Below, one piece after another: positions 14,204 to 17,081 of a stretch of DNA of 64,000 nt (its first letter is position 1; each line of letters starts with the position of its first letter). The notes under the pieces were generated by a model. It saw only the letters and a list, made by a program, of their open reading frames with translations. It was not told the DNA's origin and searched no databases. The position numbers and the translations under genes were made by a program. Source of the stretch: Parcubacteria bacterium C7867-008 (GTDB taxonomy: Bacteria > Patescibacteriota > Minisyncoccia > Phycocordibacterales > Phycocordibacteraceae). The stretch covers positions 22,153 to 86,152 of the forward strand of contig LFCR01000004.1 in NCBI GenBank assembly GCA_001189215.1, in the 5' to 3' direction.

Positions 14204-14274
14204 TGGGAGATCGTCTAATGGTAGGACAGCGGCCTTTGAAGCCGTGAATCTAGGTTCGATCCCTAGTCTCCCAG
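14204..14274 (+). tRNA. tRNA-Gln (anticodon TTG), U1:A72 acceptor
   Basis: TGGGAGA...GTCT-AATGGTA-GGAC...GCGGC-CTTTGAA-GCCGT...CTAGG-TTCGATC-CCTAG-TCTCCCA-G. The U1-A72 pair is typical of bacterial tRNA-Gln. Confidence 0.85.
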
Positions 14275-14296
14275 CAATATTTGCTATCATTTATAT

Positions 14297-14668
14297 ATGA
14301 GCAACTCTGTTAAACTTGGCCCAATTATAATTGGAGTACGAAGTATTGAAGAAGCGAAAGGGTTTTATGTAAATGTTTTTGGAATAAATATTAAAGAAGA
14401 AAGCGCAAATTACCTAAGCGCAAATCTTGGCGGTACACATATTGAGCTAGAGGAAGATTCTGAGAACCGTTTTCCAAATTGGGCAAAGAATAATATTGGT
14501 ACTTATAAAAATAGTGAGTTTATAGTCTCTGACATACATTCCTTTGTTCAAGAAGTAGTCAAAAATGGAGGAAAGGTAATAAGTGGTCCTCTTACACGAC
14601 CTTGGGGAAGTATTACTGCTGAGATTGCTGACATAGACGGAAATATCTTTTTGATCAGTCAGCATTAA
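14297..14668 (+). CDS. VOC (glyoxalase/bleomycin-resistance) family protein
   Basis: 123 aa with a betaalphabetabetabeta-module-like pattern (GPIIIGVRSIEEAKGFY...GGTHIELEE...). Strikingly AT-rich relative to its neighbours. Confidence 0.55.
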   Translation: MSNSVKLGPIIIGVRSIEEAKGFYVNVFGINIKEESANYLSANLGGTHIELEEDSENRFPNWAKNNIGTYKNSEFIVSDIHSFVQEVVKNGGKVISGPLTRPWGSITAEIADIDGNIFLISQH

Positions 14669-14707
14669 AGAGAAACCCACCGAAATGGGCTCTCCATCCG
14701 ATGGGTT

Positions 14708-14953
14708 CTATAACGGGAGCTCCGGAAGATTGATCTCGCTCACGAGGAGGTACAATCCATCAAATTCCTCCCCTTTGGCAAGGATGGGTACTGCTGTTTG
14801 ATCACGGTGGTCATAGACCATCGTGCACCCTTCGCCGACGGTGATGGCCATCCCAACCCCTAGATGCTTGCCGGTCCGGCCAAGCAAGGAAGAATTCGGA
14901 CCAGTCTTCTCAAACGTTCGAGTATCTTGCGGGAGAGTAATTTCTCTGGGCAT
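14708..14953 (-). CDS. hypothetical protein (81 aa)
   Basis: Its ATG abuts full repeat copy R1, with GAGAAGGA upstream. Confidence 0.45.
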   Translation of the reverse strand: MPREITLPQDTRTFEKTGPNSSLLGRTGKHLGVGMAITVGEGCTMVYDHRDQTAVPILAKGEEFDGLYLLVSEINLPELPL

Positions 14954-14974
14954 TCACGATGTCCTTCTCACAAC

Positions 14975-15032
14975 CTAGACAGAACGCACCACATGTTGCA
15001 GAAGGGTTCCAACATCGTCCCAGACTGCCAGC
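14975..15032 (+). repeat. island repeat R1 (full 58 bp copy)
   Basis: ctagacagaacgcaccacatgttgcagaagggttccaacatcgtcccagactgccagc. Confidence 0.8.
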
Positions 15033-15109
15033 TCGACATCTCATTTTCATATGGTATTTTCCTACTGGAGCTGAGGCTCTTTTGGACCACAGAAAATAGG
15101 AGATATCCC

Positions 15110-15757
15110 ATGGTTGCGACCATGCACGACCGCCGTGTTGCTATAGCTACAGGCACCGCTCGCGTAGATCCATCAAAGCTGGGTGCAGATTACTGGGCGT
15201 TCATCATCCGGCACGCCGCCAGCCGACTTACTATGGACTATCTGCATGGTCTGCAATCGATCGAGCAGATCATAAAGTCGGACGATCAACCCTATGAACG
15301 GTCATACGACCCGTCAGTCTTTCGTATTCCGTTTGATGCCCGTACGAAGGGTATCGTGTGCGCCCGTCTGAAGGATCTGCCTGTTGACGTCGCGAGCTGG
15401 CCTCAAATACCAGCAGACCCAGGCCACGATGCTTTCTATCAGACAGCGACCGAATCAGTCCTTGTTCTTGAACGGCAGCGCAAGGGTTTCGATTTCTGGC
15501 TGCTCAGATCCGAGTGGGAACTCATGGGTCCGGAGGAGATTCGCCCCTGGCTGCGCGGCCGTTCGCTTCATGCGCGGAAGGTAGATTTGGAAGAGATTCT
15601 CCAGGACAATACAGAGCTCGCCTCAAACATATTGTTCACCCTCCTCCGTGCTCAAGAAGAAACGACCGCACGGCTTACGGAAAGATCTCGAGTCTCCCTG
15701 GAACGGGCGTTCGAACTGAAAAATGTTCTGCACGCCACCGGTCATCCAGTGCGCTAG
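15110..15757 (+). CDS. hypothetical protein (215 aa)
   Basis: AGGAGA RBS plus ATG, 78 nt downstream of R1. GC-rich. Followed by a GGGCCG/CGGCCC hairpin. Confidence 0.55.
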   Translation: MVATMHDRRVAIATGTARVDPSKLGADYWAFIIRHAASRLTMDYLHGLQSIEQIIKSDDQPYERSYDPSVFRIPFDARTKGIVCARLKDLPVDVASWPQIPADPGHDAFYQTATESVLVLERQRKGFDFWLLRSEWELMGPEEIRPWLRGRSLHARKVDLEEILQDNTELASNILFTLLRAQEETTARLTERSRVSLERAFELKNVLHATGHPVR

Positions 15758-15799
15758 TTTACGGGCCGTGCCATTAAGGTGCGGCCCAACTCATATCAC

Positions 15800-15830
15800 A
15801 AAGGTTCCAACATCGTCCCAGACTGCCAGC
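15800..15830 (+). repeat. island repeat R2 (right-half copy)
   Basis: aaaggttccaacatcgtcccagactgccagc, lying between convergent gene ends. Confidence 0.8.
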
Positions 15831-15845
15831 AACGAAATAGGAAAA

Positions 15846-15865
15846 GCGACGGTGTTTGCCGTCGC
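15846..15865. terminator. hairpin gcgacgg-tgttt-ccgtcgc, with U-run on the minus strand
   Basis: Perfect 7 bp stem directly downstream of the minus-strand gene 15875..16249. Confidence 0.55.
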
Positions 15866-15874
15866 CTCATCTCC

Positions 15875-16249
15875 TTAGTGCTTTGGAACAATCTGAACAG
15901 CGTCCGCTTCCTTCAGGTGTTTCAGAAAGTGCGTCATCCCATCCCGTACACCAGCGTTCCAGAAGTCGGCGAAGAATACTTCCGCGTCTGTACACATGGC
16001 AGCGAAGTCGTCACCTTTGATCTGAAGATCGTTCAGATCGCAGCGAGTCACCGCCTGAGCTTGAACGAAAAGGCGGACCCCACCATTCCAGCTGTCCTGC
16101 AGGACATGAATTGTATTCTTGCCGTCCTTCAGCAAGGTCAGTCCCTTGATCCTGAGACTGGGCTCGTATACGCCTTCGTAGAGACTTCTCGGGCTATATA
16201 TCGCCCCTTCCGTCTTCGCGAGTTCACGCACGTTGTCTTGGTAGCTCAT
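15875..16249 (-). CDS. hypothetical protein (124 aa)
   Basis: GGGAGGT RBS plus ATG abutting full repeat R3. Terminator after the stop. The overlapping plus-strand ORF 15779..16270 is judged spurious. Confidence 0.55.
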   Translation of the reverse strand: MSYQDNVRELAKTEGAIYSPRSLYEGVYEPSLRIKGLTLLKDGKNTIHVLQDSWNGGVRLFVQAQAVTRCDLNDLQIKGDDFAAMCTDAEVFFADFWNAGVRDGMTHFLKHLKEADAVQIVPKH

Positions 16250-16266
16250 GGATACCTCCCAAATGT

Positions 16267-16324
16267 CTAGACAGAACGTACCATATGTTGCAGAAAGGTT
16301 CCAACATCGTCCCAGACAGCCAGC
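16267..16324 (+). repeat. island repeat R3 (full copy; begins with the perfect palindrome TGTCTAGACA)
   Basis: ctagacagaacgtaccatatgttgcagaaaggttccaacatcgtcccagacagccagc. Confidence 0.8.
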
Positions 16325-16349
16325 TCGAATATAGTGCTAAAATACACAT

Positions 16350-16652
16350 ATGACACCGTGGCTCTCTCAAATCCGCATCAGTGCGGACTTCATGGAAAAA
16401 GAAATCTCAGAAGTGGAACCTTCCGAAGAAATCAAAAGTGAAGTTATAGCGATCTGTCAGAGCATTTCACATATCCTCGACAAACAAGGAGTCGAAGCCG
16501 ATCAGAACGACTTGCTAGAGGCGCTTCAACCGGATCTTGACCGCACGGATGTGCTGATTCAGAAACTCGATTCGCTCCCTGAAAAAAAGATTGCATGGTT
16601 GCTTCTCATAACTCACACGGGAGATATCCTTCACGCGCTTAAGAGTAGGTAA
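16350..16652 (+). CDS. hypothetical acidic protein (100 aa)
   Basis: ORF 26 nt downstream of R3. No strong RBS. Confidence 0.4.
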   Translation: MTPWLSQIRISADFMEKEISEVEPSEEIKSEVIAICQSISHILDKQGVEADQNDLLEALQPDLDRTDVLIQKLDSLPEKKIAWLLLITHTGDILHALKSR

Positions 16653-16662
16653 GGTGCATCAT

Positions 16663-16690
16663 GGTTCCAATATCGTCCCAGATAGCCAGC
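16663..16690 (+). repeat. island repeat R4 (right-half copy, 3 substitutions)
   Basis: ggttccaatatcgtcccagatagccagc. Confidence 0.75.
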
Positions 16691-16746
16691 ACTCATTTAT
16701 CCACCCTCTAAATTTTGAAGACCTGTGAGCGTGCTTAACTTCAGGT

Positions 16747-17043
16747 ATGAATTCGAACTATTCGTGGAATAAAATTGCAGGCTGGTTACTTATCATTTTT
16801 GGCATTGGATTACTTCCGTATTATTTTCTTATTAAGCACAGCGTAACTTCGGGACTGTTACTTCCATTCTTGTTTGGTTACGTGCTGTACTTCGTTTTCT
16901 TAGGATTTGTAGCCAAGAATCCACGCCTGACTATGAAATCTAAGAATGGTGATGTGGTGTTGGTAAAGAGTGAGATAGGACAAAATCTGATTTCCGCGAC
17001 AGCACTCATTCTAGGAATTCTGGGAGCATTCTTTGTGCTGTAA
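16747..17043 (+). CDS. hypothetical integral membrane protein (98 aa, 3 TM)
   Basis: Hydrophobic profile. Confidence 0.5.
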   Translation: MNSNYSWNKIAGWLLIIFGIGLLPYYFLIKHSVTSGLLLPFLFGYVLYFVFLGFVAKNPRLTMKSKNGDVVLVKSEIGQNLISATALILGILGAFFVL

Positions 17044-17050
17044 CAGATAT

Positions 17051-17081
17051 AAAGGTTCCAACATCGTCCCAGACAGCCAGC
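17051..17081 (+). repeat. island repeat R5 (right-half copy)
   Basis: aaaggttccaacatcgtcccagacagccagc. Confidence 0.8.

Follow-up and report, generated by a model that had tools for sequence, protein, structure and literature searches.

Probable serial insertion of single-gene cassettes at the 3′ end of a Parcubacteria tRNA-Gln gene, with a likely role for a Patescibacteria family of large serine recombinases

Introduction

What kind of recombination lines up small genes behind a tRNA gene, each of them followed by the same short repeat? The question is raised by a stretch of 64,000 nucleotides from Parcubacteria bacterium C7867-008 (assembly GCA_001189215.1, contig LFCR01000004.1, positions 22,153 to 86,152, forward strand), which we call the window. 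Behind its tRNA-Gln gene lies an array of cassettes, each ending in a 28-nt repeat that we name R (GGTTCCAACATCGTCCCAGACWGCCAGC). An earlier reading, made from the sequence alone, noticed that the right half of R resembles the 3′ end of the tRNA. It proposed that the repeats are degenerate copies of a tRNA-borne attachment site and that the cassettes were added by serial site-specific integration at this tRNA.

We followed the repeat through the genomes of relatives. We consider it probable that the array was built by site-specific recombination at the tRNA-Gln 3′ end, with a large serine recombinase (LSR) family of Patescibacteria as the likeliest catalyst. The evidence that carries this reading is the architecture of the sites, their covariation with the target tRNA, the circular and integrated forms of the elements, the sharing of cassettes between arrays and the polarity of repeat decay, each of which we observe.

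Results

Sites at the two ends of the arrays

The tRNA-Gln(UUG) gene is called on the + strand at 14204-14274/5 (ARAGORN; 63.8 bits with the Rfam tRNA model), and its 3′-terminal 23 nt, 14253-14275, read GGTTCGATCCCTAGTCTCCCAGC. The window holds seven copies of R and one decayed copy. All are on the + strand and none occurs elsewhere in the 64 kb, where the chance expectation is 0. Scanned for the exact pattern, species-representative genomes gave 81 loci, all in metagenome-assembled genomes (MAGs) of Patescibacteria (Parcubacteria/Paceibacterota) and often several per genome; a metagenome scan contributed at least 120 further loci. The data set comprises at least 440 R copies in at least 193 arrays at no fewer than 193 Patescibacteria loci, and R lies on both strands in only 2 of the 193 loci listed. 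R gave no match in viral contigs. Nine GC-rich phage-like loci were excluded from the statistics: L102, L121, L141, L161, L165, L181 and L194, together with the related L133 and L144. In the first seven, 21 nt of the R reverse complement fall inside the gene of a WPTP-repeat protein (peptide LSGTMLEP), which we judged to be coincidence. In several of the seven this gene adjoins a DNA methylase.

The boundaries of R are sharp. The sequence logo consists of an A-rich stretch, 28 conserved positions and then AA, with no conserved partner arm. Folding of four R copies of the window with 20-nt flanks yielded no hairpin on either strand (z-scores -0.39 to +1.03). A dif/Xer-like 28-bp site was considered and rejected, as R by inspection has no dyad symmetry.

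Nearly all arrays with a visible start begin with a second site, Q (GGTTCGATCCCTAGTCT[C/G]CCAGC), which is a true tRNA-Gln 3′ end or a stand-alone copy of it. The distance from Q to the first R, which follows on the same strand, is 165-953 nt. With up to 5 mismatches it is present within 1.5 kb upstream, on the same strand, in 47 of the 64 assessable arrays, and about 12 more are headed by a variant Q such as GGTTCGAGTCCTGGACAGCCAGC. Q is also rare outside this context: 57 of the 58 hits in 1.35 Mb (both strands counted) are array heads. Among 67 heads, 18 lie within a called tRNA gene (17 tRNA-Gln), and 16 of these 18 have C at the variable position. The remaining 49 heads stand alone as 23-mers, and 39 of them have G as in R. 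Stand-alone Q is often located at the stop codon of a housekeeping gene, and the heads are flanked by housekeeping genes, for example holB, AlaRS, RNR, RecA and RNase J.

Four loci show short, incomplete tRNA-Gln copies in tandem between the tRNA and the array: L002 (reverse complement, 1457-1716), L020 (7089-7194), L082 (7822-7943) and L171 (59-120). They consist of the 3′ ~53 nt or the last 23 nt only and lie 40-150 nt apart. At L002 and L020 a conserved spacer of ~30 nt (ACAGCACATTTCACTC...) stands between them.

Resemblance of R to the tRNA end

The repeat and tRNA strings quoted in the sequence-only reading are found in the window as stated, and its alignment holds (TCG-TCCC-AGACTGCCAGC versus TCGATCCCTAGTCTCCCAGC). 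Against a shuffled control this alignment is marginal by itself: 580 of 20,000 shuffles of R (p ~0.03) and 104 of 20,000 shuffles of the right half (~0.005) reach the score, and unrelated segments of the window outscore it with 20-22 versus 16. Pairwise alignment statistics from the window are too weak to decide, and we dropped them as the sole basis.

Relatives give a clear answer. When 34 tRNAs of related loci are ranked by their match to R, the first 17 places all go to tRNA-Gln(UUG), of which there are 17. When the stand-alone Q sites are compared with R, the score is reached by 2 of 50,000 shuffles, and for the variant form by none of 50,000. The resemblance is functional and not accidental, because tRNA-Gln genes rank best, the stand-alone sites match R, and Q sits at the array heads. 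The intermediate forms that had been proposed as a check on a tRNA origin do exist, as the stand-alone GGTTCGATCCCTAGTCTGCCAGC sites. Copies of the repeat away from any tRNA had been named as evidence against such an origin. Formally they are common, since 49 of the 67 heads lie outside a tRNA gene; these heads do not refute the tRNA link, because they are look-alikes of the tRNA-Gln 3′ end.

The view of R as a degenerate copy of the tRNA site has to be given up. R is a distinct 28-nt element-borne site, almost unchanged across genomes in which HolB is only ~45-70% identical. Its 18-nt constant part is not tRNA sequence, and only the last ~10 nt imitate the acceptor strand. The difference between R and the local tRNA-Gln is the same at every locus; R is conserved from genome to genome, and the acceptor stems of tRNA-Gln vary.

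Covariation of the sites with the target tRNA

R and Q can be aligned from their shared end, and GGTTC is located exactly 5 bp further from this end in R than in Q. For serine integrases it has been reported that the recombinase-domain motif is at the same place in attP and attB, with the zinc-ribbon-domain (ZD) motif shifted by 5 bp (Rutherford et al. 2013, PMC3783163). As read from the aligned sites, the displacement between R and Q matches this published half-site rule.

The same relation is found at other tRNA genes. The far site of a tRNA-Lys element reads AGTTCCAACATCGTCCCA + TAGGGCGGAC, where the tRNA-Lys ends in ...GAGGGCGGAC. In a tRNA-Ser element the far site is GGTTCCAACTTCATCCCA + CACTCTCCGC, and its last 10 nt are identical to the tRNA end at 10 of 10 positions. 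Both elements keep the 18-nt constant part of R, and in both the last 10 nt copy the end of the element's own tRNA. The Gln, Lys and Ser classes are alike in having an element site of 28 nt, a tRNA site of 23 nt and (A/G)GTTC at both left ends. Over the last 16 nt of the site pairs, 14-15 positions are identical for Gln (variant Q), Lys and Ser.

The crossover can be approached through the base that directly precedes CCAGC. Heads keep C and R copies keep G at this position, and the two are not correlated (Fisher p = 0.23); in arrays with a single cassette, too, the head has C and R has G. A crossover inside the T-loop is ruled out by this uncorrelated retention. Together with the mapping of cassette boundaries, the retention of C and G points to an exchange in or just after CCAGC(AA). 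With a crossover there, the tRNA would survive each insertion and R would stay intact.

Recombinase genes and circular episomes

A candidate enzyme for these sites is found in relatives. The LSR family has Resolvase, Recombinase and Zn-ribbon domains and is large: 2584 proteins belong to it at E <= 1e-30, and where a source is named, in a few cases, it is a Parcubacteria/Paceibacterota MAG. An LSR gene adjoins Q or a tRNA at the loci L171, L204-L209, L211 and L212. At L171, L204, L205, L206, L208, L209 and L212 it abuts tRNA-Gln or Q, with R sites 3-5 kb downstream and up to 14 R copies in L205. L212 is the orthologue of the window's holB-tRNA-Gln locus, with an LSR present. In most of the loci retrieved through LSR homologues, the 3′ end of the gene overlaps, in antisense, the tRNA 3′ end or a stand-alone Q, and the LSR stop codon is the CTAG of the T-stem at L171, L204, L205, L209 and L212 and at the Trp and Lys loci. 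Most of the LSR genes examined directly follow a gene for a rolling-circle Rep (PF23343; Phage_CRI in one case), which was not called in L204 and L206. A few metagenome arrays carry the LSR inside their first, long, R-bounded segment.

The flanks of the arrays gave no such candidate. In the immediate flanks of the 81 genome loci there is no recurrent recombinase; the 480 clustered open reading frames (ORFs) there are housekeeping genes. A Pfam scan of 148 flank cluster representatives contained no recombinase family among the top 25 families listed, and ten further flank proteins are housekeeping proteins. The long cassettes that were scanned encode no recombinase, only metabolic or accessory proteins.

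Two episomes were recovered as circles. A contig of 5751 nt (L213-L216) occurs in multiple samples. We read 13 contigs and examined 4 of them, which have differing start points and a terminal overlap of 55 nt and are 100% identical after rotation. From the overlap and the identity after rotation we conclude that the 5751-nt contigs represent a circle of 5,696 bp. A 5897-nt contig (L217-L218) with a 30-nt overlap is likewise circularly permuted and corresponds to a circle of 5,867 bp. Each circle contains Rep, LSR, cargo and exactly one R, located inside the 3′ end of the LSR gene. The single R identifies R as attP in the circular episomes. Integrated copies have the tRNA or Q at one end and an R-type site at the other. 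The two forms leave their mark on the protein: many database LSR homologues terminate in ..AVWDDVGT.., which is the translated reverse complement of R, and integrated copies terminate in ..ML(G/R)D* by way of the tRNA. The LSR C-terminus is predicted from these reading frames to differ between the episomal and the integrated form.

The 5.7 kb episome carries an SduA_C (Shedu-like) gene. Defence-type genes are abundant beside the LSR elements, among them SMODS with SLATT, ThsB-like TIR, and Mrr and HNH/SRA nucleases; defence-rich DNA lies at L209 6129-7549, L210 7505-7876 and L202 4744-7423. In L202 (contig CAMTWI010000004.1), a tRNA-Trp beside pilin genes bears an LSR and Rep element that overlaps the tRNA 3′ end; the far-end site of this element was not found. 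The same tRNA-Trp is present in the window at 12-83 (-), next to two T4SS-pilin-like genes (48-2228), and the window is cut 11 nt beyond the tRNA.

Cassettes as mobile units

The median cassette length is 508 nt, and the longest ORF covers ~82% of a cassette (193 cassettes). ORF orientation is mixed (102 versus 76). ORFs on the same strand as R have their stop codon at a median distance of 7 nt from it. Longer cassettes encode short-chain dehydrogenases/reductases (SDR), HAD, HD and NUDIX proteins, hydrolases and methyltransferases.

Cassette 7 of the window shares 87% nucleotide identity with a cassette behind a stand-alone Q in Parcubacteria C7867-007 (L044). The homology runs from the upstream R to the downstream R, and the sequence outside is unrelated. 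A protein 66% identical to that of cassette 6 is encoded by a cassette of another array (L190), where its position is the same. For other homologous cassette pairs, similarity starts right after the upstream CCAGC and stops at the downstream R. Cassettes are discrete mobile units shared between arrays. At least 12 genomes have the holB-tRNA-Gln flank in common and differ in cassette content; HolB identity is 61-70% in genome loci and goes down to ~45% in metagenome loci.

The order of the cassettes carries a polarity. Mismatches in R amount to 1.0 at the first rank from Q, 1.5 at the second and ~2-3.5 from the third rank on, so that decay rises with distance from Q (Spearman rho = 0.33, p = 2e-4). 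The R nearest Q is closest to the consensus, which suggests that insertion takes place at the head. Serial site-specific integration at tRNA-Gln, as first proposed for the window, is right in outline: discrete units are shared between arrays, and the R nearest the tRNA is least decayed.

The array in the window

The features of the array are listed in Table 1. The sequence-only reading had ended the array at the fifth R copy. It extends further, with R copies starting at 17761 and 18122 and a decayed eighth copy at 18670 (GGTTTAAGTCTCGTCCAACCCGATATAC). Cassette 8 is the probable distal end. The intervals between R copies hold one small ORF each, on either strand, and only the glyoxalase-family ORF has a significant Pfam match. 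Cassette 1 is possibly two cassettes fused. R4 has 2 mismatches to the degenerate search pattern and 3 to the fixed consensus. The array itself has no Rfam match at the gathering threshold; the tRNA is the one match in its vicinity.

Table 1. Coordinates of the tRNA gene, the cassettes and the R-adjoining module in the window
Feature	Position	Strand	Content and remarks
tRNA-Gln(UUG)	14204-14275	+	last 23 nt = Q site, putative B-type chromosomal attachment half-site heading the array
Cassette 1	14276-15032	+	ends in R1 (15005-15032); glyoxalase-family ORF 14297-14668 (+), Pfam Glyoxalase_2 E = 4e-10; 81-aa ORF 14708-14953 (-)
Cassette 2	15033-15830	+	ends in R2 (15803-15830); ORF 15110-15757 (+), no Pfam match
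Cassette 3	15831-16324	+	ends in R3 (16297-16324); ORF 15875-16249 (-)
Cassette 4	16325-16690	+	ends in R4 (16663-16690); ORF 16350-16652 (+)
Cassette 5	16691-17081	+	ends in R5 (17054-17081); ORF 16747-17043 (+), small hydrophobic membrane-like protein
Cassette 6	17082-17788	+	ends in R6 (17761-17788); ORF 17097-17672 (-)
Cassette 7	17789-18149	+	ends in R7 (18122-18149, 6 mismatches); ORF 17824-18114 (+)
Cassette 8	18150-18697	+	ends in decayed R (18670-18697); ORF 18221-18622 (-)
30-nt module CTAGACAGAACGCACCACATGTTGCAGAAG	14975-15004	+	abuts R1; more copies 16267-16296, 18641-18669

Cassette 2 has a GC content of 0.54 versus ~0.46 in the surrounding window (1-kb bin 15001-16000), which fits a foreign origin. 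A second 1-kb bin with raised GC (35001-36000, 0.56 versus ~0.46) overlaps a 203-aa ORF at 34920-35531 (-) that has no Pfam match.

The 30-nt module adjoins R on its left and is present at 22 of 222 R copies. Its pattern is CTAGACAGAAC(C/G)TA(C/G)CA..TTGCA.AAA, with the palindrome GTCTAGAC inside. Each of its three copies in the window accompanies a cassette whose ORF runs on the opposite strand, beginning ~50 nt away. Across all arrays, opposite-strand ORFs of this kind cluster 48-51 nt from R. The module may be a portable promoter, leader or operator.

The window also contains an LSR gene at 47201-48685 (-), far from the array. It abuts a tRNA-like sequence corresponding to the 5′ two-thirds (47179-47236, anticodon TGC), which scores 25.5 bits and is below the 29-bit cut-off. 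Beyond the gene follow a LOOT RNA (49120-49253) and an AbiV gene (51417-52151). LSR, LOOT RNA and AbiV gene probably form a separate integrated element; its ends and the partner half of the tRNA were looked for and not found.

Discussion

The reading that we favour can be put as follows. Q would be the left half of attB, with the GGTTC of the T-loop as the distal (zinc-ribbon-domain) motif and the 3′ strand of the acceptor stem as the crossover-proximal (recombinase-domain) motif. R would be the left half of attP, composed of the 18-nt constant part (A/G)GTTCCAACATCGTCCCA and a ~10-nt imitation of the target acceptor strand. If the crossover takes place at or just after CCAGC(AA), integration would leave Q whole at the head, with a functional tRNA, and R whole at the far end of the insert. 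Repeated insertion at Q would move older units outward and give the order Q-(cassette-R)n. The autonomous elements would be episomes of 4-6 kb with Rep and LSR and with attP inside the 3′ end of the LSR gene. The single-gene cassettes of the window, 0.3-1 kb in length and carrying R only, would be moved in trans. As attP is within the coding sequence of the LSR, integration would swap the C-terminal tail of the enzyme.

Several points weigh against this reading. No LSR of this family and no Rep gene lie beside the array of the window, and the search for LSR or Rep remnants in its cassettes gave only the trivial R-encoded peptide and two sub-threshold hits. The cognate recombinase anticipated by the sequence-only reading is present in relatives, and none of that family is located beside the array itself. 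The only LSR of the window is a distant relative with 26-30% identity, 29 kb from the array. In the unbiased arrays, an LSR is nearby (in or next to an R-bounded segment) in only 4 of 193 listed. Serine integrases normally recombine attP with attB only; for the head site to be used again and for R-only cassettes to move, pairing would have to be relaxed or further factors be involved. The sites themselves are unusual on their right side: over 440 R and 101 Q sites, conservation beyond CCAGC is limited to AA (0.5-0.8 bit) and a richness in A/T, and neither R nor Q contains an inverted copy of the left arm, so that two inverted half-sites around a central dinucleotide are not seen. The change of the LSR C-terminus upon integration, plausible for a crossover right of CCAGC, has to be counted here as well. 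Finally, the neighbouring HUH-type Rep could be the enzyme that acts on R.

This last point leads to a different division of labour, which we regard as unlikely. Rep (HUH, G2P-like) would nick R and Q between CCAGC and AA and free single-stranded cassette circles, and the LSR would integrate the whole episome only. Initiation would take place at one R and termination at the next, and the released circles would rejoin at another site. The position of the Rep gene immediately upstream of most LSRs examined agrees with such a role. R is strictly co-oriented and free of hairpins, and conservation is confined to one flank of the cassette boundary, which is what a site nicked on one particular strand should look like; the mobility of single-R cassettes would be accounted for without a second half-site. 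However, the 5-bp displacement of GGTTC and the covariation of the last 10 nt with the tRNA suit serine-integrase half-sites and not a replication origin. In the episomes R sits in the LSR 3′ end and not beside rep, and no Rep gene is found in or near the array of the window.

A tRNA-targeting tyrosine integrase, which would have built the array in the manner of tycheposons or islands and left partial tRNA copies that have since diverged, is very improbable. In its favour, there is a full tRNA at the proximal end with direct repeats like its 3′ end downstream, and tandem tRNA integration with partial-tRNA repeats is documented (tycheposon preprint 10.1101/2020.12.28.424599). Yet R is near-identical across distant genomes and in all of them unlike the local tRNA-Gln in the same manner. 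No tyrosine recombinase was found in the scanned proteins of the window or in the flanks of ~200 loci, among the top 25 families listed, a scope in which singletons could be missed. The cassettes of 0.3-1 kb have no integrase, and the recombinase that is found beside Q is of the serine type.

We give hardly any credence to a scheme without a dedicated enzyme, in which R would be a portable 28-nt patch of homology for RecA-dependent swapping after natural transformation. Neighbouring cassettes have no sequence in common but R, the units exchanged between genomes are bounded by R at both ends, and some Patescibacteria (Saccharibacteria) are reported to be naturally competent (PMC10187176). Homology alone leaves too much unexplained, namely the tRNA-Gln-like Q at array starts, the 5-bp rule and the covariation at Lys and Ser, the single R in circular episomes, and the extreme conservation of all 28 positions.

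The chance that the array is a true integron, or an attC cluster without integron integrase (CALIN), with R as attC, the tRNA end as attI and an IntI-type integrase, is close to negligible: the single-ORF cassettes (median 508 nt, ~82% ORF) with cargo mostly of unknown function, the head site unlike the cassette site and the decay that grows with distance from the head would suit it, but R has no hairpin potential on either strand and is conserved in sequence and not in structure, ORFs run in both directions (102 versus 76), the array is without an Rfam match at the gathering threshold, and no IntI adjoins any head, as two scans of 148 representatives each (top 25 families listed) and individual scans returned no Phage_integrase-type family.

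Site-specific recombination by the LSR family would have consequences beyond the window. The T-loop and the acceptor strand of a tRNA appear to be the two recognition motifs of a serine integrase, and the 5-bp attP/attB rule is visible from sequence alone in three natural target classes (Gln, Lys, Ser). The covariation with the target suggests that these enzymes could be directed to new sites, a prospect of interest in genome engineering.

Comparison with known systems

In the literature we found no prior description of this repeat, of cassette arrays in Patescibacteria, or of serine-recombinase elements there. The arrays share features with four known systems. In operation they resemble LSR attachment-site systems and composite SCC islands, in appearance integrons, and in growth tycheposon islands; traits that define the last two are absent.

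One comparison is with the LSR systems A118/LI, Bxb1 and phiC31 (PMC3783163). Common to both are the Resolvase, Recombinase and Zn-ribbon domains, an attP-bearing circle next to integrated forms with hybrid ends, and a shared proximal motif with a distal motif displaced by exactly 5 bp. In contrast to these systems, the target here is the 3′ end of a tRNA with the GGTTC of the T-loop as distal motif, just one half-site is conserved, and attP is located within the 3′ end of the recombinase gene itself. The insertions are serial, with arrays of up to 14 units, and most units have no recombinase.

The staphylococcal/enterococcal cassette chromosome (SCC; CcrAB/CcrC, rlmH 3′ end) is alike in that serine recombinases insert at the 3′ end of a conserved housekeeping gene and in that elements are bounded by direct repeats. 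SCC, too, forms composite islands, and there are psi-SCC elements that lack a recombinase (PMC12648241; PMC6222049). SCC elements are multigene islands of 8-60 kb, usually one to few per genome and at a single site, whereas here single genes of 0.3-1 kb stand up to 14 in a row, with several landing pads per genome. The likeness is in logic only, and the target here is a tRNA and not rlmH.

Tycheposons (Hackl et al., 10.1101/2020.12.28.424599) are likewise tRNA-seeded islands in which newer insertions push older ones outward and att remnants are scattered. Their enzymes are tyrosine recombinases, and each of their repeats is a genuine piece of tRNA of ~40 nt. In the arrays described here, the repeat is a mimic brought by the element, with an 18-nt constant part that does not come from a tRNA, and the units are without a recombinase.

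With integrons, the arrays share the organisation: one platform site, many single-ORF cassettes that each end in the same recombination site, mostly unknown or accessory cargo, and high turnover between relatives. The differences are in the machinery. The candidate enzyme here is a serine and not a tyrosine recombinase, and the cassette site is an unstructured, sequence-conserved 28-mer instead of a hairpin. The platform has no integrase, ORFs run both ways, and some cassettes have a possible promoter or leader module of their own.

We tentatively propose, as a reading with slightly less than even odds, that the system is a serine-recombinase analogue of the integron in Patescibacteria. Small episomes with Rep and LSR would supply the enzyme, and several pads would take up hundreds of different R-only single-gene cassettes, which would accumulate in stacks there and pass between species, with the LSR C-terminus switched by integration. 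The pads may be of two sorts, the real tRNA-Gln and domesticated 23-nt copies of its 3′ end that stand alone where housekeeping genes terminate. Genomes of Patescibacteria are tiny, and to our knowledge few routes of gene exchange are recognised in them. If true, capture of cassettes at the several pads of a chromosome would supply these bacteria with much of their accessory gene content; the cargo seen includes hydrolases, reductases and defence genes. An integron-like organisation could then arise with a different class of recombinase.

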